From Patescibacteria group bacterium (GTDB lineage Bacteria; Patescibacteriota; UBA1384; XYA2-FULL-43-10): a stretch of 32,000 bases of DNA. The stretch lies in the NCBI GenBank assembly GCA_041674405.1, contig JBAYVT010000002.1:30001-62000 (forward strand), read 5' to 3'. The notes under the pieces were generated by a model. The model had not been told where the DNA came from. It did no database searches and saw only the letters and a program-made list of their open reading frames with translations. The position numbers and the translations under genes were made by a program. Below are positions 11,714 through 31,328 of the stretch, one piece after another; positions within the stretch are counted from its first letter, which is position 1, and every line of letters begins with the position of its first letter.

Positions 11714-12727
11714 TTAATAAATCTCGACAACCATGCGTGGATTTTCAGCTACTTGCGCCTCAAGCTCCGATTTGGGCAACAACCCCCCTTGTGCTCCAAT
11801 TATTCTGACAACGGAAGTAGAATTTACTATACCTGCTTTGAGTGCTTCAGATATCTTGTATTGATCGGAAAAATCCGCGTCTTTTGAATCTAAAAATTTC
11901 GCAACAAAAGCTGATGCAAAACTATCACCCGCTCCAGTCGCATCCACTCTTTCTCGATTCATTGCTTCGATTCGATATGACCGAACCCCATCAAATGCGT
12001 AAGCGCCTTCTTTTCCATCGGTTACGATAATTATTCTTGGCCCAAGAGCATGAAGCGATTTGGCAATTTCTTCAACCCGCGGCCGCACAGGATAATTGGA
12101 AAATTTTATTGCTTCTTCACGATTCAAAATCAATATCGAAACACATTTTAATAATGCCCTGTATTTCGAAACACCCTTTTCGATTTGCAAAGAACCAGGA
12201 TTCCATGCAATTTTTGTTCCCTTCTCAGAAGCCATAGATATTAGATCCTTTTCAACTTCTTCGGTGTTTTCCCCCATCGGGCAAACAAAAAACCATTTAG
12301 TTTTTAAATTTTTTTTAGGCTTCAGCACTGAGTAATCTGAAACCCCGTGGCAAACAAAAATTGTTCTTTCGTCCCCAAGATTAAAAATGATTGAAAAATT
12401 TGTTTGGACATCATGTTTTTTAATGACCTGCGCTTCGTCTACACCCTCAATCCTAAGCCTTTCCAGTATTTTTTCAGAAGGAGAATCGTCTCCAATAGCA
12501 GTAATAATTGCAGTGTTATATCCAAGGCGATTGAACGAAACAGCAGTGTTGCATGCTGAACCGCCAATATCATAAAATGCATGTTCTAAAGAAATTTTTT
12601 CCCCCAGTTCAAAAGAAACAGATTTGCCCGAGGCATATCTCCGGCTGCTTTCAATATCAAAAGTATGAGGCTTAACAAAAATATCCTCTGAAGCATCCCC
12701 AATTGTGACAATATCATACTTTGTCAT
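11714..12727 (-). CDS. PfkB/ribokinase-family carbohydrate kinase
   Basis: GGSACNTAV N-terminal motif. DATGAGDSFASAF is the PfkB signature 2. 4-nt overlap with fba. Confidence 0.85.
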   Translation of the reverse strand: MTKYDIVTIGDASEDIFVKPHTFDIESSRRYASGKSVSFELGEKISLEHAFYDIGGSACNTAVSFNRLGYNTAIITAIGDDSPSEKILERLRIEGVDEAQVIKKHDVQTNFSIIFNLGDERTIFVCHGVSDYSVLKPKKNLKTKWFFVCPMGENTEEVEKDLISMASEKGTKIAWNPGSLQIEKGVSKYRALLKCVSILILNREEAIKFSNYPVRPRVEEIAKSLHALGPRIIIVTDGKEGAYAFDGVRSYRIEAMNRERVDATGAGDSFASAFVAKFLDSKDADFSDQYKISEALKAGIVNSTSVVRIIGAQGGLLPKSELEAQVAENPRMVVEIY

Positions 12728-13569
12728 ACTTTTGCTTTATTTCTTGAACCAAATAATGTTATGTAATCACAGACTAATTTTTCAATATCAGCCTTCACTT
12801 CATTGAAGACATCTCTTGGATCATCGCTGATATCGATATTCTTTGAGGCGCTGGACAAGAACGCCTTGCGTATTTTGGTATCAATATTAAATTTGACCGC
12901 ACCCGCTGCTATAGCAGCTTTTATGTCCTTCTGTGAAAGGCCCGATGCACCATGGATCACAATTGGAACAGAACTAGCATGGGCGATTTTTGACAAAAGT
13001 GAAATATCTAACTTTTCACCCCTCGGTGCACCATGTTCATTGCCTACAGAAACTGCTAATGAAGTAATCCCGGTTCGATTAATAAAATCACTAGCTAAAT
13101 CAGGATGGGTATATGAACTTTTGTTCGATAATTCTCCACCCTCTTCGCGCGAAATTACACCCAGTTCCGCTTCCACATCTACATCAAATTCTTTCGCATA
13201 CGAAACAACTTTTTTAGTTAAAGCGATATTTGATTCATATGGCAGTTTTGAAGCATCAATCATTACAGAATTATATCCGATATCGATGCACTCCTTGACT
13301 ATTCCAAAATCACGCGCATGATCAAGGTGAATTGCGGCAAAAACATCTTGGCTGTCCAGTTCGCTTTTTATTATTCCAAATAGTTCAGGAAGCCCGGCAT
13401 AATCGATTGCGCTTGGCGTAGTCTGAATAATTACTGGTGAATTCATTTTTTTTGCAGCAGCTACGACTACTTGTACTGTTTCGAGATTATATACATTAAA
13501 AGCACCTATGGCATAGCCATCGTTTTTGGCTCCTTGATATGCTTCTTTGAGATTTAATAATGGCATCAA
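12724..13569 (-). CDS. fba: class II fructose/tagatose-bisphosphate aldolase
   Basis: GYAIGAFNV, HLDHA, SVGNEHG and VIHGASG motifs. Confidence 0.9.
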   Translation of the reverse strand: MMPLLNLKEAYQGAKNDGYAIGAFNVYNLETVQVVVAAAKKMNSPVIIQTTPSAIDYAGLPELFGIIKSELDSQDVFAAIHLDHARDFGIVKECIDIGYNSVMIDASKLPYESNIALTKKVVSYAKEFDVDVEAELGVISREEGGELSNKSSYTHPDLASDFINRTGITSLAVSVGNEHGAPRGEKLDISLLSKIAHASSVPIVIHGASGLSQKDIKAAIAAGAVKFNIDTKIRKAFLSSASKNIDISDDPRDVFNEVKADIEKLVCDYITLFGSRNKAKV

Positions 13570-14723
13570 ATTACGCTTGTCTTGATATTGCTCACAAATT
13601 TATTGTTGTCAAGTGCAATCAAGCCCGGCATCTTTTCACCAGCAAGGTATGAAAGAGTTGCACCACCGCCTGTTGAAATGAAATTAATATCGCCACGAAG
13701 ATTGTTTGCATCGATAAACCCAACCGTATCTCCGCCCGCAACAATGGTAGTCCCTTTGTTTTTGGAAATTGCCTCTGCAATTCTCCTTGTTCCAGTCTCA
13801 TATCGTTCGTCTTCCGAGTGTCCCAGATTTCCGTTCCAGAACGTCGTAGCAGCAGTCGCTATTTCAGCCTCAAATTTAGCAATTGTTTCCGGGCCGATAT
13901 CCATGATTTTGAAACGGCCACCATCAGAATTTTCCCTAGCCTGATCTACCGGTAAAACAATTTTATCTTGATATCTCGATAGAATATCCTCACAGGTTTC
14001 AAACATTTCCCTTTCATATAATGAATCACTTACGTCTTGGCCAGACGCCGCAAGAAAAGTATTGGCAATAGCCCCTCCAATTAAAATTTTGTCCGCTTGT
14101 CCTGCCAGATTATTTATCAAAGCGGCTTTATCCTTGACTTTTGCTCCGCCCAAAACAATCTTATAAGGCTTTTGTGGATTTTGTATCAAAATATCAAGAG
14201 TTGTTTTCTCAGACTCAATCAGAAATCCGGCATAGCTTGGAAGATAATTGGTAATCGCATCTACTGAAGCATGGGCCCTATGGCTTACCCCGAAAGCATC
14301 ATTAACATAAATATCTGCGTAGCTTGCAAGTTCTTCCCCAAATCTTTCATTGTTGGCTTCTTCTTCTCTGTGCCATCGCAGATTGCCCAACATAAAAATA
14401 TCACCAAAAGTCATCTCTGATATTTTTTTGGCGACCAAGGGGTGAATTATGTGATCTGTCGCATACACTTTCCGTTTTAATAGCTTTGCAAGCTCAGAGG
14501 CGAGCGGGATGGTAGAAAGTTCTGGAATAATTTCTCCAGCCGGCTTTCCCAGATGAGTGGCAATGATAATCTTAGTCCTTCTTTCAAGTAAATACTGGAG
14601 AGTTGAAAGAGATTCAACAATTCTATTGTTATCTAAAATCTTACCGTCTTTAATCGGTACATTATAATCGACGCGAACAAAAATCCGCTTTCCACTAACG
14701 TTTGCATCCCTAACGCTAACCAT
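13566..14723 (-). CDS. pgk: phosphoglycerate kinase
   Basis: RVDYNVP, ATHLGKP, AFGVSHRAHAS and STGGGA motifs. Confidence 0.95.
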   Translation of the reverse strand: MVSVRDANVSGKRIFVRVDYNVPIKDGKILDNNRIVESLSTLQYLLERRTKIIIATHLGKPAGEIIPELSTIPLASELAKLLKRKVYATDHIIHPLVAKKISEMTFGDIFMLGNLRWHREEEANNERFGEELASYADIYVNDAFGVSHRAHASVDAITNYLPSYAGFLIESEKTTLDILIQNPQKPYKIVLGGAKVKDKAALINNLAGQADKILIGGAIANTFLAASGQDVSDSLYEREMFETCEDILSRYQDKIVLPVDQARENSDGGRFKIMDIGPETIAKFEAEIATAATTFWNGNLGHSEDERYETGTRRIAEAISKNKGTTIVAGGDTVGFIDANNLRGDINFISTGGGATLSYLAGEKMPGLIALDNNKFVSNIKTSVI

Positions 14724-14749
14724 ATTCCCTCACTTTTACAATTAACCAT

Positions 14750-14778
14750 ATTTTACCATTGTAAATTTTTACCGTAAA
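14750..14778 (-). promoter_or_regulatory. candidate promoter of pgk-fba-pfkB
   Basis: Minus strand reads TTTACG, a 17-nt spacer ending in TGG, then TAAAAT (extended -10). It lies ~27 nt upstream of the pgk ATG and is embedded in three TTTTACMRT direct repeats about 17 bp apart. Confidence 0.35.
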
Positions 14779-14843
14779 TAGATCATGGCGGAGTTCTGTT
14801 CGTTTTGATAAAATTAATGTGCGTTCAAAATATTGCGATTTAA

Positions 14844-14872
14844 AATCAGATTTATAATTTTTATCTCTGATT
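14844..14872 (+). promoter_or_regulatory. candidate -10 (TATAAT 14853-14858) of the hydrogenase operon, bracketed by a 7-bp inverted repeat
   Basis: AATCAGA (14844-50) and TCTGATT (14866-72) flank a consensus TATAAT. There is no good -35. GGAGG lies 4 nt before the TTG start at 14885. Confidence 0.3.
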
Positions 14873-14884
14873 GACGGAGGGGTT

Positions 14885-15817
14885 TTGCCTTACAGGCTTA
14901 AAGATCATCATTTAAACCATATATTTAGCATAATAAATAAGTATTATGAAATTTATGGCGTTTCCAAAAAAAGCAAAAAATTTTCTAGAATTGAAATTGC
15001 ATCAGATTTAATCTGGATAAACGGCAGATCACAAATGCCACCCAAAAAAGTCTTGTTTGAAGACCAACAGATAATTTCGGAAGATCTCAATAAAAAGATT
15101 GCTTTCGTTGGCATGCCCCTGTGTGATGTCTCGGCCATCCATCATTTAATTTACAAATTAAGAGATTCTGGATTAGTACCGGATCGAGATGATCTGTTGC
15201 TGATTGCATCTGAATGTAAGCCAGACGATGCTTGTTTTTGTGAATTTTTCGGTACTGATAAGCGATCAGGTTTTGATATTTATATTCAAAAAAATAGCAG
15301 TGGGTACGATGCATTCTCAGGGACAGCTGCTGGAGAAAAAATTTTAAAAAAATTAGCGCTAATGCCTGATCACAAATTAAACCTGCGCCCAGTTACCCAT
15401 AAGTCCCTAAACAAATTGTCCAAGGAAGAAATAACAAAACTGATTGAAAAACGCGGCCAATTTGATGACTTATGGAACAAGATTGCAAATAACTGCTTTG
15501 GTTGTGGCGCCTGCACAGCTGTTTGCCCGCTTTGTTATTGTTTTAGACAAGAAGAGAAAAATAATTTAGATGGCAGCTGCAAATCTTGCATAAATTGGGA
15601 TTCTTGCTTTGCAAAAGAATTTTCCGAAGTACAAAATAGAGCTGATTTACGGCCTCAAAATGTTGACCGGCTATATAATTGGTATCATCACAAATTTGTC
15701 CGCTCCCCTTATCTTTGCGTCGGATGTGGACGATGTATCAAGGCTTGCCCTGCAAATTTAAATATTAAAAATATTCTTTTATCAATTGAAAAGTTAGGCG
15801 AAAAAAGTGATGAATAG
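14885..15817 (+). CDS. hydB: hydrogenase-associated 4Fe-4S subunit (sulfhydrogenase beta / AsrA-like)
   Basis: TTG start with a GGAGG SD. Two ferredoxin-type clusters, CFGCGACTAVCPLCYC and CVGCGRCIKACP. GMPLCDVSAI resembles the AsrA/HydB N-domain. Confidence 0.75.
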   Translation: MPYRLKDHHLNHIFSIINKYYEIYGVSKKSKKFSRIEIASDLIWINGRSQMPPKKVLFEDQQIISEDLNKKIAFVGMPLCDVSAIHHLIYKLRDSGLVPDRDDLLLIASECKPDDACFCEFFGTDKRSGFDIYIQKNSSGYDAFSGTAAGEKILKKLALMPDHKLNLRPVTHKSLNKLSKEEITKLIEKRGQFDDLWNKIANNCFGCGACTAVCPLCYCFRQEEKNNLDGSCKSCINWDSCFAKEFSEVQNRADLRPQNVDRLYNWYHHKFVRSPYLCVGCGRCIKACPANLNIKNILLSIEKLGEKSDE

Positions 15818-16607
15818 CCCTTTTTCATATCGTGAATATAAAATTACTAACAAAACTGAAGTTGCTCCAGATACATTTCTGTTTCGACTTAGAGGAAAAT
15901 TGAAATTTGATCCAGGGCAATTTGTCCAGGTAAAATTTCCCCATATCGGAGAAGTGACTCTGGTTCCCTGCTCTAAAAAAGATGAAAAAACATATTTTGA
16001 ACTTTGCGTTCGCAGAGCCGGAAATACGACCGAAAAAATATCTGAAAAGGTACCGGGTGATTCGATGTTTGTTCGAGGGCCATATGGGCACGGATGGCCA
16101 ATCGGCAAAACATTGGAAAAAGATATTTTGCTGATTTCCGGCGGCATCGGAATCATCCCGCTTATGCCGCTTATGGATGAACTGGTGAAATATCGAGGTA
16201 ATTTTGGGAAAATCTACTTTCTCGCCGGATTTAAAACTCCGCACCACGTCATGTTTGAACAGGATCTTTTGCGTTACAAAAAGAAAATAAGCTATTTCAA
16301 GGTTGCGGTCGAAAAAACCGACAGAGATTGGTGGGGTGAAAATTGTATGATCACCGACTTGATTAAAAACACAAATCTGAGTCCAAATATCAATGTATTT
16401 CTATGTGGTCCGGAAATTATGTTTCGCCCCTGCGTCGATGTTCTATTACAAAAAAAAATTAATCCGAAAAATATTTACGTTTCTTTCGAGCGAAGAATGG
16501 AATGCGGGATCGGTTTTTGCCAACATTGTACTATAGGCAAGTATAAAGTTTGTGAGGATGGCCCCATATTTACCTGGAGCAAAATAGCACCGGAGTTAGA
16601 AAAATGA
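15810..16607 (+). CDS. hydG: FAD/NAD(P)-binding oxidoreductase with C-terminal 2Fe-2S (sulfhydrogenase gamma / PyrK / AsrB-like)
   Basis: GGIGIIPLMP nucleotide-binding motif. C-terminal CGIGFCQHC...C cluster. The ATG at 15810 overlaps the hydB stop. Confidence 0.8.
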   Translation: MNSPFSYREYKITNKTEVAPDTFLFRLRGKLKFDPGQFVQVKFPHIGEVTLVPCSKKDEKTYFELCVRRAGNTTEKISEKVPGDSMFVRGPYGHGWPIGKTLEKDILLISGGIGIIPLMPLMDELVKYRGNFGKIYFLAGFKTPHHVMFEQDLLRYKKKISYFKVAVEKTDRDWWGENCMITDLIKNTNLSPNINVFLCGPEIMFRPCVDVLLQKKINPKNIYVSFERRMECGIGFCQHCTIGKYKVCEDGPIFTWSKIAPELEK

Positions 16608-17335
16608 ATGCAATATTCCCCAAAAAAACACTAGGAATTTTTTCTCTCACTTGTTGCGAAGGTTGCCAATTTTCGCTGTTAAAGGACTTTGTTGGTTTTG
16701 AAAAAATCACAAGATTTTATGAAATAAAAAGTTTTCGCCTCGGGCAAGAAGAAAATGACGAATGCTTTTTTGATGTTTCGCTTGTTGAGGGAACACCCGA
16801 GTCAACTCGGGAACTTGAGCATTTGAAAAAGATAAGAAAAGTATCGAAAGCAGTTGTTTCAATTGGCGCTTGTGCACATTTAGGCGGTATTCAATCAGAG
16901 CGAAATCGCTTACCTAAAAAATACATCGGAAAAGAAAAAGTTAAAAAAATTAGTGACATAATAAAAGTAGATTTGGTTATTCCTGGCTGCCCGATTTCCC
17001 ACAAGGAGGCAGTGGCCGCCCTTCTTGACACATATTGGGGCAAAAAATTTCGGCCGAAGGATTATGCCGTATGTTTCGAATGTAGAAAAAATGAAAATGA
17101 ATGCTTGATAAAAAATGGCAGACCCTGCCTGGGCCCGATCACCCGGGGAGGATGTGATAGTGTTTGTATAAATGGTGGAGAATTGTGTCTTGGGTGCCGC
17201 GGTGCGTTAGATCAAACGAATTTTAATAAAATTAAAGAAATACTAAACCCGATGATCGGAGAAGACAAAACGAATAATCTCCTTACCATATATGGAGACC
17301 TGGAACAAGAATGGAAAGATCAGGACAGACAATGA
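16604..17335 (+). CDS. hydD: [NiFe]-hydrogenase small (delta) subunit, group 3 type
   Basis: TCCEGCQ, GACAHLGG and PGCP provide the proximal-cluster Cys. The Cys-rich C-terminus is CFECRKNENEC...C..GGCDSVC...CLGC. ATGA overlap with hydG. Confidence 0.85.
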   Translation: MNAIFPKKTLGIFSLTCCEGCQFSLLKDFVGFEKITRFYEIKSFRLGQEENDECFFDVSLVEGTPESTRELEHLKKIRKVSKAVVSIGACAHLGGIQSERNRLPKKYIGKEKVKKISDIIKVDLVIPGCPISHKEAVAALLDTYWGKKFRPKDYAVCFECRKNENECLIKNGRPCLGPITRGGCDSVCINGGELCLGCRGALDQTNFNKIKEILNPMIGEDKTNNLLTIYGDLEQEWKDQDRQ

Positions 17336-18249
17336 AATTTGAAGAATTAAAGAAAATACTAGCAAGTAAAATAGAATTTAAAGATTTTGACGACCCTGAT
17401 GTCGTAAAAATTAATGCCGGTATAGTAAGTAATCATAAATATAAAATTAAAAGCCACAATTCGAGTTTTTTTGTAAAAGAGATCAAAGACAACGAGGCAA
17501 ATATTCTCAAAATATTAGATATGATTGATCTAGATTTCTATCCCAAAATCTTATATCTTGATCTACTCGATAAAAATATCCTCGTCTCCGAATTTATTGA
17601 GGGTGACGCACTGCAATCTTGGGAGATTCAGGACAATCTTCTGCTAGGTTTTACCCAAATGCAAAATTTGATGAATAATATTAGTTTCCTCAAAGAAAAA
17701 GAAATATTTGGTATTTCGAATTTTAGCGAAACTGATGGTGGTTTTTTCCGAAATCAAATAACAGAAAATTTTTTATATGGATTGGAAACACTTGATGACT
17801 TGTCAAAAACTAATTTGCCAATCGTAAAAAAACACTTCGAGTTGGTATCTTTTTTGAAGAAAGATAAGCAAAAAATATTTGATGATTTTTCAAACATGCC
17901 GTTTGCGAGGCAACATCACGATTTCAAGCAGGACAACATCATTGGAAATCCACAAAAATTGGTTGATTGGGGATCTTCTTATGGATATGGGCCATTTTTG
18001 TTTGATCTTGCTCCTTTTTTGTTAAACAATAAAAACCAATTAGAACTATACAAATCAAAATCAGATGTCTGCAAGGGCTTTACAGACCGCCAGATAAATC
18101 GCTGGCTTTATGTCGCCGCTGTAGCAAGATATATGGAAGATTTGAGATATAGAATTAGCGATAATGGATGGAATTCGTCTAAAGAAAAATGCGAACGCTT
18201 TCTTGAGAGCGAGTATGATAATTATCAGTCATTGCTTGATAAAATATAG
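17332..18249 (+). CDS. APH/choline-kinase-fold phosphotransferase-like protein embedded in the hydrogenase operon
   Basis: FFVKEIK (beta3 Lys). Hinge VSEFIEGD. Catalytic loop HHDFKQDN matches HxDxxxxN. Metal-binding LVDWG. The ATG at 17332 forms an ATGA overlap with the hydD stop, with AGGA 6 nt upstream. The track alternative is 17311. Confidence 0.75.
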   Translation: MKFEELKKILASKIEFKDFDDPDVVKINAGIVSNHKYKIKSHNSSFFVKEIKDNEANILKILDMIDLDFYPKILYLDLLDKNILVSEFIEGDALQSWEIQDNLLLGFTQMQNLMNNISFLKEKEIFGISNFSETDGGFFRNQITENFLYGLETLDDLSKTNLPIVKKHFELVSFLKKDKQKIFDDFSNMPFARQHHDFKQDNIIGNPQKLVDWGSSYGYGPFLFDLAPFLLNNKNQLELYKSKSDVCKGFTDRQINRWLYVAAVARYMEDLRYRISDNGWNSSKEKCERFLESEYDNYQSLLDKI

Positions 18250-18271
18250 CTAAAATTTCAGGAGATAGATC

Positions 18272-19519
18272 ATGAGTTCATCAGTTCCCAAAATTGAAGG
18301 ACACGCTACTTTTTACGCCCATCTTCGTGCCGGAAAAGTTGACAAGGCCAGAATTATTGGCCTTGATGGAGATCGGTTTGTTGAAAAAATATTATTCGGG
18401 CGCAGCTATATGGAAGTACCAGTAATTACCTCTCGCATCTGTGGTATATGCCCCGTAATTCACAATGTTACCTCAACCAAAGCTGTGGAAAATGCTCTCG
18501 ATATCAAGGTTTCCGAACAAGTAGAAACACTGCGGAAACTAATGCTCTGTGGCCAGATGGTTCAGAGCCACTCGCTTCATCTATACCTTCTGGTTCTTCC
18601 CGATTTCATGGGAATGTCTTCCTCTTTCGAGCTTCAAAAAAAGCACCCGGATATTTTTGCCGATGCAGTTGCCCTAAAATCATATGCCGATAGTATTATT
18701 GAGATAATCGGAGGCAGGGCAGTTCATCCGGTTTCGAACGTACCTGGCGGTTTCAAAAAATTTCCGGAAATTTCTGAATTACGGAAATTACTGGAAGAAA
18801 GTAAAAAGATGACCGATCTTGGGATTAAAACATTAAAGCTTTTTCAGTCATTTAATTATCCTGAAATTTCCCGCAAGATAATTTACTCGGCGTTGTCTGA
18901 CCTGAATGAATATGCTTTCTATGGCGGAGAAATCAAGACCACGAGCGGTGAGAATTTTAAAGCAAAAGATTATAAAAAATATATTTACGAAGAAATTCTG
19001 CCATATAATCGTGCGAAATTTGGAACGCTCAAGGGCAAAGAAATGATGGTTGGCGCAATTGCCCGGATTAATCTCAACAAGAAACAATTGGAAAAAGAAA
19101 TTGGAAGTTTGAAGGAACTTGGTGTAGGTGAAGAGCTGTCCGATAATCCATTCGGTAACATAATTGCCCAAGCAATTGAAAACTATTATTTTATCGTAAA
19201 ATCAGAAGCGATAATTGAAAAATTAATTAAAGAGGGTATTTCCGAAGAGTCAATAGTTGAACCAAAAAAAATTGATGAAGGAGTTGCTGCTTGCGAAGCA
19301 CCGCGTGGAACGCTGTTTCACTACTACAAATTTGACAAAGAAGGTATGCTTGAAAAGTGTGATATTGTTACGCCAACCGTACAAAATCTGCCAGCATTGG
19401 AATATGACATGAAAAAACTCGGCCCCTTTCTCAAGGACTTGGACGAAACAGAGAGAACAGAAATGATTGAGATGCTTATTCGTTCATATGACCCATGCAT
19501 CACTTGCGCCACACATTAA
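18272..19519 (+). CDS. hydA: [NiFe]-hydrogenase large (alpha) subunit
   Basis: KIEGH. L1 motif RICGICPVIH. QSHSLHLY. GGRAVHP. The C-terminal DPCITCATH is followed directly by TAA. Confidence 0.92.
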   Translation: MSSSVPKIEGHATFYAHLRAGKVDKARIIGLDGDRFVEKILFGRSYMEVPVITSRICGICPVIHNVTSTKAVENALDIKVSEQVETLRKLMLCGQMVQSHSLHLYLLVLPDFMGMSSSFELQKKHPDIFADAVALKSYADSIIEIIGGRAVHPVSNVPGGFKKFPEISELRKLLEESKKMTDLGIKTLKLFQSFNYPEISRKIIYSALSDLNEYAFYGGEIKTTSGENFKAKDYKKYIYEEILPYNRAKFGTLKGKEMMVGAIARINLNKKQLEKEIGSLKELGVGEELSDNPFGNIIAQAIENYYFIVKSEAIIEKLIKEGISEESIVEPKKIDEGVAACEAPRGTLFHYYKFDKEGMLEKCDIVTPTVQNLPALEYDMKKLGPFLKDLDETERTEMIEMLIRSYDPCITCATH

Positions 19520-19534
19520 TACAGAAATGAATAG

Positions 19535-19567
19535 CCCCAAAGGGGACCGTTCGGGTCGAATCTGAAC
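19535..19567 (+). other. two adjacent short hairpins after hydA (CCCC-AAA-GGGG; GTTCGG-GTCGAAT-CTGAAC)
   Basis: Seen directly in the sequence. The second hairpin has a T-arm-like 7-nt loop. No U-tract follows. Confidence 0.4.
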
Positions 19568-19625
19568 CAATAGCAAATATACGAATTATTAGTAAATTAA
19601 CCATCAGTATATTAGCAATCGATTT

Positions 19626-20507
19626 ATGAATGCAATCATTGAAATCAAAAAACTGACAAAATATTATGGCAAAACCCTCGGGATTAAAAGCCTTGATTTG
19701 GATGTAATTGAAGGAGAAATATTTGGTTTTATCGGGCCAAATGGCGCTGGCAAATCTACAACGATCAGGCTTTTGCTAGATTTAATTCGGCCAACAGCGG
19801 GAAGTGCAAAAATTTTTGGCAAAGATATCCACCGCCATAGTGTGGAGCTTAAACAAGATATCGGCTATTTGCCAGGAGAAATATTTTTGCCGGAAAATCT
19901 CACCGGTAAAAGCTGTATTAATTATTTTAAATCCTTCAAGGAAACAATTGATGACAGATATCTTAAAGATTTAAAATCTCGTTTTGAATTTGATGATAAG
20001 AAAAAGATTTCCCAGTATTCCAAAGGCAATAAGCAAAAATTAGCAATAATTTTAGCCCTGATGCACAAGCCGAAACTCCTAATTCTAGACGAACCGACAA
20101 GCGGGCTCGACCCCTTAAACCAGCAAGAATTTTACAAGGTTATCACCGAAACAAAGGAGTGGAGAACAACAACTTTTTTCTCAACTCATATTTTGGATGA
20201 GGCTGAATTTCTTTGCGATCGAGTCGGAATCATTAAGGATGGCCGTCTGCTCCAGATTGAAGACATCGACAAATTTAAAGAAAAAAATATTCGTGAAATA
20301 AATCTGGAAACCACCGCAGATATTCCTCTTTCGGCCTTGAAAATTGATGGCGTCGAAAAGACGGAAAAAACTGATCATGGCTATCGCCTAATCACCAAGG
20401 GCCATAACGGCGAATTGATAAAAATCATTTCGAAATTTGCAATCGATGACATTAAAATATCCGAACCATCGCTTGAAGAAATATTTATGCATTTTTACGA
20501 AAAATAA
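19626..20507 (+). CDS. ABC transporter ATP-binding protein (ABC-2 type)
   Basis: Walker A GPNGAGKST. Signature YSKGNKQK. Walker B LLILDEPTSGLD. Confidence 0.9.
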   Translation: MNAIIEIKKLTKYYGKTLGIKSLDLDVIEGEIFGFIGPNGAGKSTTIRLLLDLIRPTAGSAKIFGKDIHRHSVELKQDIGYLPGEIFLPENLTGKSCINYFKSFKETIDDRYLKDLKSRFEFDDKKKISQYSKGNKQKLAIILALMHKPKLLILDEPTSGLDPLNQQEFYKVITETKEWRTTTFFSTHILDEAEFLCDRVGIIKDGRLLQIEDIDKFKEKNIREINLETTADIPLSALKIDGVEKTEKTDHGYRLITKGHNGELIKIISKFAIDDIKISEPSLEEIFMHFYEK

Positions 20508-20604
20508 CTAATAGCTAGAAACTAAAATGTAAAATCTAAGGATGGGTCGTTAAATAATTGTTTTGATAAAATATGGTTTTAAGTTTTAACATTTAAGTTA
20601 TTAC

Positions 20605-21408
20605 ATGGATAATATGATCGCAATAATGTACAGAAAATTTATTGACCAAGCGATTTCACTTCTATATTATTTTGGCGGCCTACTCGCCTACTCCTGGATG
20701 ATGATCGCCATGTTTCCAACAATGAAGACGGCAGATCTGGCCGGTATTTACAACCAATTTCCCAAAGAATTTCTAAAGTTTTTTGGCGCCAACGGGATTG
20801 AAAGCATGGGAACGGTAGAAGGTTTTTTATCTATAGAATTTCTTTCGCTGTTTTTTATACTAATTATCGCTTTTTATATCGGCTCGTCCGCCGGATCAAC
20901 CATAGCTGGCGCAATCGAAAAAAGGACAATGGATTTTCAGCTATCACAGCCAATTTCTCGGGCTAAGCTTTTACTCAGTGAGACAATCGTCGGGCTCCTC
21001 AACACTGCACTTTTGGTATTTGCCACTTCAGGCAGTATCTATATTCTTGCAAAGGCATACGATGTTTCAATGAGCACTCGGGGAATCTTCGTTTTTGCTT
21101 TTGTGGCGATAATATTCTTATGGGCATTTTACGGGTTAGCAGTTTTGATTTCTTCCATCTTGCGCAGCAAAATCACCGTTGCCTCGATAACGGTATCTAT
21201 TATCATGGGCTTGTATATATTGAATGCTCTTTCGAAAATCGTGGATAAACTGGCAAAGATCGAAAAATACACATTGTTTAATATGTATAATCCACAAAAA
21301 CTTTTGACCGATCACATCATAAACTGGCACCAGATCGAATTCTTGCTTTTAGTTCTTGTGGTTGGAATAATTAGTTCAATATTGATATTTAATAATAAAG
21401 ATATCTAG
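20605..21408 (+). CDS. ABC-2-family transporter permease
   Basis: 267 aa with ~6 TM segments, directly downstream of the ATPase. Confidence 0.65.
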   Translation: MDNMIAIMYRKFIDQAISLLYYFGGLLAYSWMMIAMFPTMKTADLAGIYNQFPKEFLKFFGANGIESMGTVEGFLSIEFLSLFFILIIAFYIGSSAGSTIAGAIEKRTMDFQLSQPISRAKLLLSETIVGLLNTALLVFATSGSIYILAKAYDVSMSTRGIFVFAFVAIIFLWAFYGLAVLISSILRSKITVASITVSIIMGLYILNALSKIVDKLAKIEKYTLFNMYNPQKLLTDHIINWHQIEFLLLVLVVGIISSILIFNNKDI

Positions 21409-21462: not shown

Positions 21463-22251
21463 TTATGGTTTCCTAGAAACGAAAACTAATCCGATCGGGT
21501 AGGTTTTTGGAAACTTAGGTTGTTTTTCAAGAAGTTCGGCGGTTACTTCCGGCTCTAACATTTTTTCAACCACAAACCCCGCTTTAATCAAAGAATTAAA
21601 ATAATCAGAAATCGGCCGTTGATAATGTTCAATCTCGTAAACCTTTTGGTATTTTTGAGCAACATCAACATCCCGAATCTTACTGTTGTCCATTGTAAAT
21701 TTCGAGTATCCCCTACTAAAATACCCTTTCGATCCCCGAATGGTCCTCTCTTTCCCGTCGGCTTGTCCCCGCAAATAGGTAACGAGATCCCATACAGGGT
21801 GAGTGATTGCAAACAAAAACCGTCCTCCGTTTTTCAAGGTTTTAAAAGCCTGGGACGTAACAAAGTCAATCTCTTCGAGTTCGTTCAGCAAGAAACCTGA
21901 AAAAATTACATCTACGGAATTCGGTTTTATTTTCCAGGGTTTGGTAACATCTTGTTCAATAAATTCGGCTATATTGGTCTGAACTCTTTTTCTCGCAAAA
22001 TCCAAATTATGGGGAGATATGTCGATTAGAATTAGTCGATCTGGGTTCTGACCCTCAATTTGCGAACTGAAATAACCGTTGCCGCACCCCAAATCAACCA
22101 CCGTCTTCCCGTTTAACGTTCCAATCTCAGATAATAATTGCGGGTTGAGCACATATTGTTTGTAGACCCCGCCATTATCTCCGGTCGCTTCGTTCCAAAA
22201 ACTCGCAAATTCAGGATCTAAATATGCAGAAATCGCATTATTCTGTGTCAT
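21463..22251 (-). CDS. class I SAM-dependent methyltransferase
   Basis: Motif I VVDLGCGNGYFS. Post-I LIDIS. NGGRFLF motif. Its start overlaps the hypC stop by 14 nt. Confidence 0.8.
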   Translation of the reverse strand: MTQNNAISAYLDPEFASFWNEATGDNGGVYKQYVLNPQLLSEIGTLNGKTVVDLGCGNGYFSSQIEGQNPDRLILIDISPHNLDFARKRVQTNIAEFIEQDVTKPWKIKPNSVDVIFSGFLLNELEEIDFVTSQAFKTLKNGGRFLFAITHPVWDLVTYLRGQADGKERTIRGSKGYFSRGYSKFTMDNSKIRDVDVAQKYQKVYEIEHYQRPISDYFNSLIKAGFVVEKMLEPEVTAELLEKQPKFPKTYPIGLVFVSRKP

Positions 22252-22471
22252 GGTGGTCCATTTCTTTATGGGTTTTTATAAATTTTAAGTTCTCTTTTGC
22301 TTCGGTTTCGGAGATTTTTGAAAGTGCCCTGCCGTCGTGCATCAAAATCCAATCCCCGACTTTAGGATTTTGAACTAGAGAAATATCGGCCTTGTATTCT
22401 TCACCCTCATAATCAAAAAGGGCAATTGCCCCTTTGATTTCTTTGATTTTTCCAGGTATTGCTAAACACAT
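22238..22471 (-). CDS. hypC: hydrogenase maturation chaperone HypC/HupF
   Basis: MCLAIPGKIKEI... with the essential Cys2. GDWILMHDG. I place the start at 22471 rather than the track start at 22492, because HypC needs an N-terminal Met-Cys. Confidence 0.85.
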   Translation of the reverse strand: MCLAIPGKIKEIKGAIALFDYEGEEYKADISLVQNPKVGDWILMHDGRALSKISETEAKENLKFIKTHKEMDHHDTE

Positions 22472-22527
22472 GGTCACTACACTCCAAATCAAAAATCAAA
22501 ATTTAAAAATCAAAAAATTGGAATTAT

Positions 22528-23526
22528 TTATTTTGAATTTGTTACCCGCTCCACCATATCCACAAGCCTCTCTGAGTATCCCCACTCGTTGTCATACCAG
22601 GCAATTATTTTAACAAGATCTCCACCGATCACGCATGTTAATGGTAGGTCGACTATCGATGAATATGGATTTTGTTTAAGGTCGCTTGATACCAGCGGCT
22701 CTTCTGAAACCTGAATTATTCCTTTGTGGCTGCCATCTGCAGCCTTTTTAAGTGCTTCATTAATATCATCGACTGAAACTTTTTTGGAAAGAACCGCAAC
22801 GATATCAGAGAGCGAAACCACCGGGGATGGAACACGGATCGATAAGCCGTCAAATTTATTCTTAAGCTTGGGTATTGTCAAAGTCGCTGCTATTGCCGCA
22901 CCTGTCGTAGTCGGAACAATATTTTGGGCTGCAGCGCGAGCCCGGCGCAGGTCTTTATGCGGACCGTCAACCAAATTTTGGTCAGCCGTATAGGAATGAA
23001 TCGTTGTCATCATTGATTTTTCAACGCCAAATTCATCCTCAATCACCTTCATCACCGGCGCGATACAATTGGTTGTACAGGAAGCATTTGAGACAATACT
23101 CTCGTCATCGTATTTATCAGCATTAGCGCCGATCACGAAAGTCGGAACCGAATCATCCTTTGCCGGCGCGGACAAAACAACTTTTTTGGCGCCGGCTTCC
23201 AAATGGGCTTTTGCCAAATCATTAGTCAAAAATATACCGGTCGACTCGATGACAACATCGATATCAAGTACTTTCCATGGCAAAGCTCCCGGATTTTTCT
23301 CCGAAAGGTAATGGATTTTCTTGTTATTGACGATAATCTCATTATCAGAAAAGCCAACTTCCCGGTCGTAAATACCGTAGCATGTGTCGTATTTTAAAAG
23401 ATGGGCTTGGGTTTCTGCCGGGCACAGGTCATTTAAAGCGACAAGCTCAACATTCGGCCGGTCCAAAATTATCTTCGCCGCCGCCCGGCCGATCCGTCCA
23501 AAGCCATTAATTGCTACTCGCAGCAT
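22528..23526 (-). CDS. gap: glyceraldehyde-3-phosphate dehydrogenase
   Basis: MLRVAINGFGRIGR. Catalytic SNASCTTNC. WYDNEWGYS. The start at 23526 is preceded by AAGGAGGTG. The 39-codon upstream extension in the track looks spurious. Confidence 0.93.
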   Translation of the reverse strand: MLRVAINGFGRIGRAAAKIILDRPNVELVALNDLCPAETQAHLLKYDTCYGIYDREVGFSDNEIIVNNKKIHYLSEKNPGALPWKVLDIDVVIESTGIFLTNDLAKAHLEAGAKKVVLSAPAKDDSVPTFVIGANADKYDDESIVSNASCTTNCIAPVMKVIEDEFGVEKSMMTTIHSYTADQNLVDGPHKDLRRARAAAQNIVPTTTGAAIAATLTIPKLKNKFDGLSIRVPSPVVSLSDIVAVLSKKVSVDDINEALKKAADGSHKGIIQVSEEPLVSSDLKQNPYSSIVDLPLTCVIGGDLVKIIAWYDNEWGYSERLVDMVERVTNSK

Positions 23527-24289
23527 CCACCTCCTTCGGGATAACAACGTCACCTTTAAAACTTTTATTTGCTGCCCAAATGCGGCAGATTTCGACAAAT
23601 ACACTTGCTCTAAGGCTGGCACTGCCAACCAAGACTCCATCAATCAACGGCGATTTAGCAAAATTTAATATTTTTTCATGGTCTATGCTGCCACCATACA
23701 AAATTGGGCTTTCTCGGAATATCACTTCGCGAAGTTTGGCCACTGCTTTTTCTGCATGTTCGACCGGTGCGGCATTGTGATTGCCAATTGCCCATACGGG
23801 CTCGTAAGCCACAACAATATCCTTGTATTTGTTTTTTGGAACATGAGTCAAGGCCTCTTCAAGCTGGTCGGCAGCATCGGACAGGGGGGCGCTTTTCGTT
23901 TTCTCGCCAACACAAATGATTGGAGACAATCCGTGTTTTAAGGCTGCTAACACTTTTTCATTAACATCAAAATCTGTCTCGCCAAAATGAGCCCGGCGTT
24001 CCGAATGTCCGACAATTACGTATTTGCAAACATCGCGAATCATAATCGGCGAGATTTCACCGGTGTAAGGACCCTCATCTTCATAAAACATATTTTGGGC
24101 CCCTAGGTTAACCTTTCCGTCTCTTTTCAAAATTTCTGATAGTTCAGAAAGCCAGATCACTGGCGGGCAGACCACGACCTCGACTCCATCAAGACTGGCA
24201 ACAGAGTTTCTGATTGAGGTCGCTAAAATATACGCATCAGATGCCCGCGTATACATCTTCCAGTTCGCAACAACCATCGGCCGTCTCAT
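23507..24289 (-). CDS. tpiA: triosephosphate isomerase
   Basis: VVANWKM, VGHSERR, AYEPVWAIG and YGGS motifs. The last 20 nt overlap the gap start. Confidence 0.92.
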   Translation of the reverse strand: MRRPMVVANWKMYTRASDAYILATSIRNSVASLDGVEVVVCPPVIWLSELSEILKRDGKVNLGAQNMFYEDEGPYTGEISPIMIRDVCKYVIVGHSERRAHFGETDFDVNEKVLAALKHGLSPIICVGEKTKSAPLSDAADQLEEALTHVPKNKYKDIVVAYEPVWAIGNHNAAPVEHAEKAVAKLREVIFRESPILYGGSIDHEKILNFAKSPLIDGVLVGSASLRASVFVEICRIWAANKSFKGDVVIPKEVDAASSN

Positions 24290-24308: not shown

Positions 24309-25337
24309 TTATTTCACTCTTACATTATTATATAGCTTAATAATCATCTTTGCCAATTTAGTATTATCGTGGTACAAAGGCTTTTTTTCATCAACCAAAT
24401 CCGCTCTAGAGATTTTCACTCCAGATATTTTCTCGTTTTCTGTTGTGATATTATAGACTTCACCAAGTTTTGATGATTGTTTTGACTTCTTTATTACATG
24501 GCTATTTACTAAGCAATAATCAAAAATTTTGCCTGGGGCATGTTTTTTTATTGCTGCAATGTGATCAGAGACAGAGTAATTTTCTGTCTCTCCTCTCTCG
24601 GTTGAAATGTTTGCAATATATATTTTCAGCGCTATTTTGTTAGATAATATGGCTTTTTTAATTCCAGGTATCAACAGGTTTGGAATTACACTAGTATACA
24701 AACTCCCTGGTCCCAAAAGGATCAAATCTGCCTCATTAATCGCCTGGACCGCTTTTTCATACGCCCTCACTTTGTCTTTATTTAAAAAGACAATATTAAT
24801 TTTTTTTCCAGCTTGTGGAATCTTATCTTCCCCCAAAATTTTTTTTCCGCCAGCATACACAGCACCAATTTTAATATTATCCAGTGTGGCTGGTAAAATT
24901 TTTCCCGCCGTGCGAAAAATCGTGGAGGTTGCCTCTATTGCCTGTTCGAATGATCCTAGATGCTTAGTTAGGGCTGCAATCCAAATATTTCCAAGCGTAT
25001 GGTTTGATAAGGATTTATTTTTCCCAGGAAATCGATATTCCAATATTTTGGATAATATTTCTCCATCTTCCGCCAACGCTGAAATACATTTACGGATATC
25101 TCCTGGTGGCAAAATATCAAATTCTTTCCTGATTACTCCCGTGGAAGAGCCGTCATCAGTCACAGCCACAATTGCTGAAATGTTATTAGAATATTTTTTA
25201 AGCCCGGATAATAAAACGGATAAACCCGTGCCACCACCGATTGCGGCAATTTTAATATCACTTCCAGCAAGAAGACGAGGGTCGTTAGGCTCGTAAACGA
25301 GATTTCTCCACCATGTTTTGAAAAAGCTTTCTCTCAT
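24309..25337 (-). CDS. YvcK/CofD-family protein (gluconeogenesis-factor-like, UPF0052)
   Basis: IAAIGGGTGLSVLLSGLKKY...AIVAVTDDGSSTG...PPGDIRKC. Confidence 0.85.
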   Translation of the reverse strand: MRESFFKTWWRNLVYEPNDPRLLAGSDIKIAAIGGGTGLSVLLSGLKKYSNNISAIVAVTDDGSSTGVIRKEFDILPPGDIRKCISALAEDGEILSKILEYRFPGKNKSLSNHTLGNIWIAALTKHLGSFEQAIEATSTIFRTAGKILPATLDNIKIGAVYAGGKKILGEDKIPQAGKKINIVFLNKDKVRAYEKAVQAINEADLILLGPGSLYTSVIPNLLIPGIKKAILSNKIALKIYIANISTERGETENYSVSDHIAAIKKHAPGKIFDYCLVNSHVIKKSKQSSKLGEVYNITTENEKISGVKISRADLVDEKKPLYHDNTKLAKMIIKLYNNVRVK

Positions 25338-31251: not shown

Positions 31252-31328
31252 GGGTACGTAGCTCAGTTGGATAGAGCGTCTCCCTGATAAGGAGAAGGCC
31301 GGGGGTTCAATCCCCTCCGTACCCACCA
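31252..31328 (+). tRNA. tRNA-Ile (anticodon GAT), CCA encoded
   Basis: GGGTACG acceptor, GCTC/GAGC D-stem, anticodon loop CTGATAA, T-arm GGGGG-TTCAATC-CCCTC, CGTACCC-A-CCA. Confidence 0.95.

Follow-up and report, generated by a model that had tools for sequence, protein, structure and literature searches.

A kinase-fold gene between the small- and large-subunit genes of a group-3b-type [NiFe]-hydrogenase operon from a Patescibacteria bacterium: probably a lineage-specific insertion

The sulfhydrogenase I and II operons of Pyrococcus furiosus (hydBGDA and shyBCDA) are the described systems with which the locus considered here is most readily compared, and group-3b [NiFe]-hydrogenases with a Pyrococcus-like gene arrangement have already been described in bacteria of the candidate phyla radiation (CPR) (PMC10811913). 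The DNA analysed (the window) is a stretch of 32,000 nucleotides from a Patescibacteria group bacterium (GenBank assembly GCA_041674405.1, contig JBAYVT010000002.1, positions 30,001 to 62,000 of the forward strand). It contains a hydrogenase operon with the same four subunits, in the same order, as those of P. furiosus; unlike in P. furiosus, a further gene, predicted to encode a protein with a kinase fold, splits the delta from the alpha subunit. This kinase gene is genuine and is under purifying selection. Comparison with related operons indicates that it is probably a dispensable, lineage-specific insertion and not a new component of the hydrogenase.

The kinase itself invites comparison with the APH/choline-kinase-like phosphotransferases (Pfam PF01636, protein-kinase-like clan), examples of which are Plasmodium choline kinase (6yxs, 3fi8), APH(9)-Ia (3i0o), LicA (4r77), corramycin phosphotransferase (8agy) and Bacillus subtilis YtaA (2q83). 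Like these enzymes, it is a stand-alone, single-domain protein of about 300 amino acids with a predicted bilobal fold, a beta3 lysine, an HxDxxxxN (Brenner) loop and the aspartate of a DFG-like DWG motif; unlike them, it is very remote in sequence and bears the family signature MPFARQHHDF(R/K)ExNI...DWGSSYG(H/Y)GPFLFDLAPFL. Like HypA-F, HupF/HypC and the endopeptidases, whose genes lie in or beside hydrogenase operons, it is encoded in such an operon, but it has no sequence or fold relationship to these accessory proteins: a scan against NCBIfam matched no family (0 families), and the fold is kinase-like. We know of no Hyp maturation step that uses an APH-fold kinase, and in the literature we found neither a kinase in a hydrogenase operon nor any such arrangement; the preliminary description of this DNA, made from the sequence alone, likewise knew of no hydrogenase accessory protein or subunit with this fold. 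With the selfish-type small genes of CPR bacteria (IVP/four-helix-bundle, PF05635; GIY-YIG, PF01541; PD-(D/E)XK, PF13366) the kinase shares the type of site, the junctions between hydrogenase subunit genes. It differs from them in being three times larger, in belonging to neither a nuclease nor the IVP family, in being single-copy and in having a start that overlaps the hydD stop, as would be expected for translational coupling.

The operon comprises five tightly packed, co-oriented open reading frames (ORFs) on the plus strand, at 14885-19519, in the order hydB-hydG-hydD-X-hydA, where X is the kinase ORF. On the strength of its sequence matches it is a group-3b-type [NiFe]-hydrogenase operon, the subgroup being assigned by best hit and architecture. 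Its features are as follows.

14885-15817, + strand: hydB-like beta subunit, a 4Fe-4S dicluster protein of 310 amino acids (Pfam Fer4_22, 3e-20; best NCBIfam match sulfhyd_ShyB/HydB)
15807-16607, + strand: hydG-like gamma subunit, an FAD/NAD-binding and 2Fe-2S protein of 266 amino acids, with an 11-nt overlap with hydB (Pfam FAD_binding_6, NAD_binding_1 and DHODB_Fe-S_bind; NCBIfam AsrB / hydrogenase gamma)
16604-17335, + strand: hydD-like small (delta) subunit, 243 amino acids (Pfam Oxidored_q6, 4e-21; NCBIfam sulfhyd_ShyD, 4e-45)
17322-17325, + strand: AGGA Shine-Dalgarno-like element, 6 nt before the kinase ATG and within the hydD coding sequence (read from the sequence)
17332-18249, + strand: APH/choline-kinase-fold phosphotransferase gene, 305 amino acids (start set by homologues; ATG overlaps the hydD stop)
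18260-18264, + strand: AGGAG Shine-Dalgarno element of hydA, 7 nt ahead of its ATG (read from the sequence)
18272-19519, + strand: hydA-like [NiFe] large (alpha) subunit, 415 amino acids (Pfam NiFeSe_Hases, 3e-39; NCBIfam sulfhyd_ShyA, 7e-84)

Among the hydrogenase models of NCBIfam, those for Shy/Hyd match all four subunits best, although the gamma subunit scores slightly higher on the homologous sulfite-reductase model AsrB. All scores lie far under the equivalog cut-offs (for example, 282 bits against 700 for ShyA), and neither H2 evolution versus sulfur reduction nor the cofactor can be read from the match. Both nickel-binding motifs, RICGICPVIH and DPCITCATH, are present in the translated HydA; its last residue is the histidine of DPCITCATH, so that, as in its CPR relatives, it carries no C-terminal extension for a maturation endopeptidase.

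The longest form of the kinase ORF runs from 17311 to 18249 (312 amino acids), and the GenBank entry, MFA7243975.1, labelled a hypothetical protein, takes the upstream ATG at 17311. The methionine at 17332 is the equivalent start in all 51 of 51 aligned relatives and is also backed by other gene callers; both lengths given in the preliminary description (305-312 amino acids) thus exist, with the homologues supporting 305. From this start the kinase ATG and the hydD TGA overlap as ATGA (17332-17335), the same geometry as at the hydG stop and hydD start (ATGA, 4 nt, 16604-16607), and the kinase stop codon at 18247-18249 is separated from the hydA start at 18272 by 22 nt. The placement of the ORF between hydD and hydA in an operon of sulfhydrogenase order, its coupling geometry, and the Shine-Dalgarno element of hydA had all been pointed out beforehand; the ORFs, the Pfam and NCBIfam matches, and the sequence of the junctions bear these points out. 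The same holds for the supposition that the gene has no promoter of its own: in a promoter and terminator scan of 14600-19800 no signal was found at either kinase boundary, and promoter-like sites were fewer than in shuffled sequence. Around the insert there are only short repeats at chance level, with no target-site duplication, terminal inverted repeats or flanking direct repeats, and the window holds no further copy of the kinase. A PADLOC scan for anti-phage defence returned 0 families for the kinase at E<=0.01.

Structure prediction and alignment together indicate that the kinase ORF has an APH/choline-kinase (eukaryotic-like kinase) fold with intact catalytic residues, as the preliminary description had argued from motifs. 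An AlphaFold2 model built on the family alignment has a predicted local distance difference test score (pLDDT) of 91.4 and a predicted template-modelling score (pTM) of 0.90. Searched against the PDB with Foldseek, it gives 95 matches at E<=1e-3, the top 50 of which are all APH/ChoK-family kinases at probability 1.00. The leading matches (choline/ethanolamine kinases, APH(9), APH(2''), LicA, corramycin phosphotransferase, NahK and FN3K) have E-values from 1e-7 to 1e-5, with template-modelling scores of just 0.4-0.5 and identities of 12-17%. The invariant positions of the 52-sequence family alignment are G30, K49, E55, H195, D197 and D212, together with the block DWGSSYG(Y/H)GPFLFDLAPF. In the window protein the kinase motifs are K49 (FFVK), H195-x-D197-xxxx-N202 (HHDFKQDN) and D212 (DWG); N202 is found in most other members and is replaced by H, Q or S in a few.

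Profile methods agree less uniformly. The sole Pfam match of the window kinase is to APH (PF01636), at 21.1 bits, under the gathering score of 23.2, and it covers residues 189-230 only; across the family, 43 of 52 members match the model at E<=0.01, the best at 2.1e-12. In the Pfam search that the preliminary description had proposed, the window protein thus stays under the gathering score, and most of its family match at E<=0.01. With the family profile no chain was found among PDB sequences, even at E<=10. An hhalign comparison aligns the family segment HHDF..DNI...VDWGSSYGYGPF to VHGDWGKDQI...IDFGRSF-YGPS of a neighbouring, Pfam-positive APH protein. The catalytic aspartate and the DFG-like aspartate are therefore homologous to the kinase motif, and the possibility raised beforehand that the Asp/Asn loop might resemble that motif without homology is not borne out. 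Another hhalign comparison, with the APH/EcKL protein that neighbours the homologue on contig L055 (contigs are identified by L numbers), was uninformative (probability 3%).

A homology search with the kinase recovered 61 relatives. When 1.84 billion representative proteins were searched exhaustively with a profile, 74 were recovered at E<=1e-3 and 52 at E<=1e-30; the drop-off is sharp, and the gap that separates the family from the background is almost empty. The hosts identified by name are Nanoarchaeota, Pacearchaeota, Woesearchaeota, Hodarchaeota, an unclassified archaeon, "Ca. Hebobacterum", FCPU426 and a Brocadiaceae bacterium. On these searches the family is rare, sharply bounded and uncharacterised; its members are scattered patchily, as single genes, through CPR bacteria, the DPANN and Asgard archaea and a small number of further phyla. 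The guanine-plus-cytosine (GC) content of the host loci ranges from 0.32 to 0.68; the family genes are therefore residents of their genomes and did not arrive recently. Patescibacteria and DPANN archaea have been shown to exchange genes (PMC12455944), which fits the patchy distribution of the family.

The relation of the kinase to the hydrogenase is best seen from related operons. The sample consisted of 27 metagenome contigs with HydA relatives and the two closest HydA proteins, and yielded 26 operons in which the hydD/hydA junction is visible. The kinase is present in one of them, represented by two contigs from two sequencing runs (L011 and L012), and absent from 25 of the 26. In L011/L012 the layout hydB-hydG-hydD-kinase-hydA is identical to that in the window, and no other lineage shows it. 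The L011 kinase is 72% identical to the window kinase; its ATG overlaps the hydD TAA (TAATG), and hydA follows after 22 nt holding AGGAG. The arrangement is thus not unique to this genome, and there are no near-identical extra copies; the preliminary description had held that uniqueness together with scattered near-identical copies would mark a one-off insertion. Its question whether a kinase-fold gene recurs between hydD and hydA is answered by this second lineage and by no other.

One of the operons without the kinase is L050. Its HydA is 90% identical to that of the carrier L011 and 75% identical to that of the window. Nothing is inserted between hydD and hydA, which share an ATGA overlap, and the downstream ABC transporter and HypC genes stand as in the window. 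In L049, whose HydA is the closest relative of the window HydA (80%), the hydD/hydA junction is occupied by a gene for a 137-amino-acid 23S_rRNA_IVP protein. In L022-L024 (HydA 70-73%) hydD and hydA overlap directly, and across HydA relatives at 70-76% identity the two genes abut or lie no more than 163 nt apart, with no gene between. The proposal that the kinase is an integral part of the hydrogenase is not supported by these comparisons, nor by the finding that other genes take its place in six operons and that its other homologues whose contexts were examined lie elsewhere.

Genes other than the kinase occupy the hydD/hydA junction in 6 of the 26 operons: besides L049, these are a PD-(D/E)XK gene (L025), an IVP gene (L029), GIY-YIG genes (L032 and L033) and a PQ-loop gene with an Ldh_2 gene (L042). 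L024, L029, L034, L036 and L047 have IVP, GIY-YIG or LbH genes at the hydG/hydD or hydB/hydG junction. The families involved are 23S_rRNA_IVP/four-helix-bundle, GIY-YIG, PDDEXK_3 and LbH hexapeptide, with L032 and L036 assigned by sequence resemblance only. The inserts listed here are all co-oriented with the operon.

L049, 1471-1884: insert at a subunit junction
L029, 4423-4779 and 5580-5948: inserts at subunit junctions
L024, 470-847: insert at a subunit junction
L036, 4440-4811: insert at a subunit junction
L033, 397-687: insert at a subunit junction
L032, 4938-5228: insert at a subunit junction
L034, 3159-3434: insert at a subunit junction
L025, 5535-5957: insert at a subunit junction
L047, 3845-4474: insert at a subunit junction

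The subunit junctions of CPR group-3b operons look like recurrent landing sites for unrelated genes, that is, insertion hot spots.

A neighbour-joining tree of the kinases places the window and L011 sequences as a terminal pair, whose sister clade consists of four genes outside hydrogenase operons; the hydrogenase location is therefore a derived state. The insertion geometry shared by the window and L011 speaks for one insertion event. In the HydA/HydD identity matrix the non-carriers L049 and L050 come between the two carriers, a pattern that calls either for two losses or for spread and replacement through recombination among related operons. A loss in L050, if there was one, restored a clean ATGA overlap. 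Under either history the comparison of very close relatives implies that the hydrogenase operon functions without the kinase gene.

The two carriers also provide a measure of selection. Between them the nonsynonymous divergence (dN) of the kinase is 0.185, within the range of the hydrogenase genes (0.15-0.24), and the synonymous divergence (dS) is saturated for all; the kinase has thus evolved under strong purifying selection, diverging in step with its hydrogenase neighbours. Its GC content is 0.32 in the window, against 0.36-0.40 for the hydrogenase genes, and 0.30 in L011, against 0.38-0.41: in both carriers it lies 4-10 GC points below its hydrogenase neighbours. This is compatible with a foreign origin, though not decisive.

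Outside hydrogenase operons we obtained 12 distinct contexts, with homologues of 33-53% identity. The next relatives after L011 (L013, L014, L057 and L058, at 51-53%) have as neighbours a gene for a NAGPA-domain protein, a PurM-like gene, an Asp/Glu racemase gene and a second APH-like kinase gene. In Nanoarchaeota the homologues adjoin MFS transporters and an overlapping methyltransferase gene, and in Woesearchaeota and Pacearchaeota a gene for an AAA_33 P-loop protein. More distant homologues have a 2-hydroxyacid dehydrogenase, SPFH proteins or an ABC exporter beside them, or genes for a GNAT acetyltransferase, an MscS channel and a further APH/EcKL kinase. No constant partner gene was found across the neighbourhoods examined. 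The acetyltransferases, methyltransferases, exporters and APH-like kinases give the contexts a flavour of small-molecule modification or detoxification, which is an impression and not a test.

Some details of these contexts may be recorded for themselves. The AAA_33 protein has 179 amino acids and is encoded at L001 5226-5765 (minus strand) and L016 6494-7033 (plus strand); its orientations differ and the two copies are 58% identical. Among DPANN archaea the kinase and AAA_33 genes may be conserved as a pair; the window lacks a homologue of the AAA_33 protein. On L058 the kinase homologue and a different APH-family kinase (132-908 and 898-1827) overlap by 11 nt, and on L055 (3217-4275) the second, APH/EcKL kinase lies about 700 nt upstream of the homologue on the opposite strand. 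Two candidate links to hydrogenases were rejected: the AIRS-domain gene beside the L014 homologue is PurM-like and not HypE, and the LbH gene of the L047 hydrogenase operon has no sequence similarity, other than the repeat fold, to the LbH gene near the L051 kinase.

With moderate confidence, we favour the view that the kinase is a selectively maintained, co-expressed passenger, most likely a small-molecule kinase, without a mechanistic role in the hydrogenase. A copy of the gene would have lodged in the hydD/hydA junction of a group-3b operon in one narrow Patescibacteria lineage. Lacking its own promoter, it would be carried on the hydrogenase transcript, and the ATGA overlap would couple its translation to that of hydD. 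The protein would act as an ATP-dependent phosphotransferase on a hydroxyl of a small molecule, which may be a metabolite, a xenobiotic or an antibiotic-like compound, and would take no mechanistic part in hydrogenase assembly or catalysis. Expression would be owed to the landing site, and retention to a useful function of the kinase itself. Several observations weigh against this account. The embedded layout persists in two lineages some 25-30% apart at the protein level, both of which keep the start/stop overlap (ATGA in the window, TAATG in L011) and the 22-nt spacer with AGGAG, and the kinase and the hydrogenase subunits have diverged at a similar pace; from this persistence, the kept geometry and the parallel divergence it follows that co-expression with the hydrogenase has been tolerated for a long time and may be selected. 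The scan of 14600-19800 detected no promoter or terminator belonging to the kinase. In an uncultured archaeon a homologue of 40% identity is preceded, two genes upstream, by a bona fide hypB (L051 3599-4315, also L019 6587-7303; TIGR00073, 238.7 bits, cut-off 121.2), with an LbH protein encoded between; apart from the operons of the window and L011/L012, this hypB is the one hydrogenase-related neighbour seen beside a family member. Finally, the resistance or detoxification flavour of the neighbourhoods is impressionistic, and most of the related contigs are short, which limits the sampling of contexts.

A rival reading makes the kinase a lineage-specific functional accessory of the group-3b hydrogenase: a maturation factor, a scaffold, or a regulator with a subunit or an effector metabolite as its phosphorylation target, whose stoichiometric co-translation with HydD and HydA would be selected. 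The start/stop overlap at hydD and the fixed 22-nt Shine-Dalgarno spacer before hydA in both lineages, a kinase dN comparable to that of the subunits, the lack of a detectable internal promoter or terminator, and the archaeal HypB all speak for it. We nonetheless consider it unlikely, because L050, with a HydA 90% identical to a carrier's, has no kinase and an intact ATGA hydD/hydA overlap, an IVP gene stands in its place in the closest HydA relative of the window, and the gene is missing from 25 of the 26 related operons. Moreover, every other family member examined, in archaea and bacteria, lies outside hydrogenase contexts among unrelated neighbours, and no known hydrogenase accessory family is matched. 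The stronger statement that the kinase has been recruited as a true accessory, held at a fixed ratio to HydD and HydA by coupling and phosphorylating a subunit or a redox-linked metabolite or aiding assembly, strikes us as slightly harder still to sustain. Were it correct, [NiFe]-hydrogenase systems would gain their first kinase-fold component and a genuinely new element, which the comparative data make unlikely. A protein target, or a non-catalytic role as pseudokinase or scaffold (compare the CotS/YtaA spore-coat kinases and FN3K protein repair), would be equally unrelated to the hydrogenase. YtaA (2q83), FN3K (8ue1) and CcrZ (7s3l) do occur among the Foldseek matches, with E-values like those of small-molecule kinases. 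On the other side, the catalytic residues are all intact and invariant, which speaks against a pseudokinase, most structural neighbours are small-molecule kinases, and the neighbourhoods offer no constant protein partner; we give such a role a small but real chance. That the gene is a recent neutral or decaying insertion, the cargo of a mobile element without maintained function, is very improbable. Its GC content is below that of the flanking genes and the junction is a hot spot for selfish-type small genes in relatives, but two lineages whose kinases share 72% of their amino acids both keep an intact ORF, and this, with dN of 0.185 and saturated dS, points to long and strong purifying selection; there are no flanking direct or inverted repeats and no extra copies in the window, and the family is conserved across phyla with its catalytic residues invariant. 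On these comparisons, neutral or decaying insertion is effectively ruled out.

Some modest points are solid. The kinase belongs, as an uncharacterised member, to a known enzyme superfamily, and its position is unusual and restricted to a lineage. It belongs to a rare and well-delimited family of APH-like kinases common to ultra-small CPR bacteria and to DPANN and Asgard archaea, in which all catalytic residues are kept and for which no solved or characterised relative is detectable by sequence. CPR hydrogenase operons tolerate, and repeatedly acquire, foreign genes between their subunit genes, which counsels caution when a function is deduced in these genomes from the operon to which a gene belongs. 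The case also shows that a gene can look translationally coupled and be retained for a long time and yet be dispensable for its host operon.

Beyond the core genes, the surroundings of the operon contain the following features.

14805-14834, + strand: candidate sigma-70-like promoter upstream of hydB, TTGATA-18-AATATT (a weak consensus match only; such sites are rarer than in shuffled sequence)
19626-21408, + strand: ABC-2 type transporter downstream of hydA (ATPase 19626-20507, permease 20605-21408)
22238-22492, - strand: hypC/hupF-family hydrogenase maturation chaperone, the sole Hyp gene in the window, 4 kb downstream (Pfam HupF_HypC, 3.5e-21)

Because the ABC transporter is also syntenic downstream of hydA in L050, which lacks the kinase, it is not linked to the kinase. 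Rfam and tRNA scans of the window returned a tRNA-Ile at 31252-31328 and nothing else.

In a more distant hydrogenase clade (HydA about 36% identical) several genes lie between hydG and hydD (L038 2466-4500, L042 1156-5983, L044 2551-5110); they include an EamA-like permease (by appearance, unscanned), a conserved protein of about 270 amino acids without a Pfam match and a HypC-like gene. The Ldh_2 gene that accompanies the PQ-loop gene between hydD and hydA of L042 is of the malate/L-lactate dehydrogenase family. In the window, the operon is flanked by glycolysis genes: on one side, at 11714-14723, a sugar-kinase-like ORF and a class II aldolase-like ORF (both by the look of their sequences, unscanned) with PGK, and on the other, at 22528-24289, GAPDH and TIM, beyond which lies a CofD-family gene (24309-25337).

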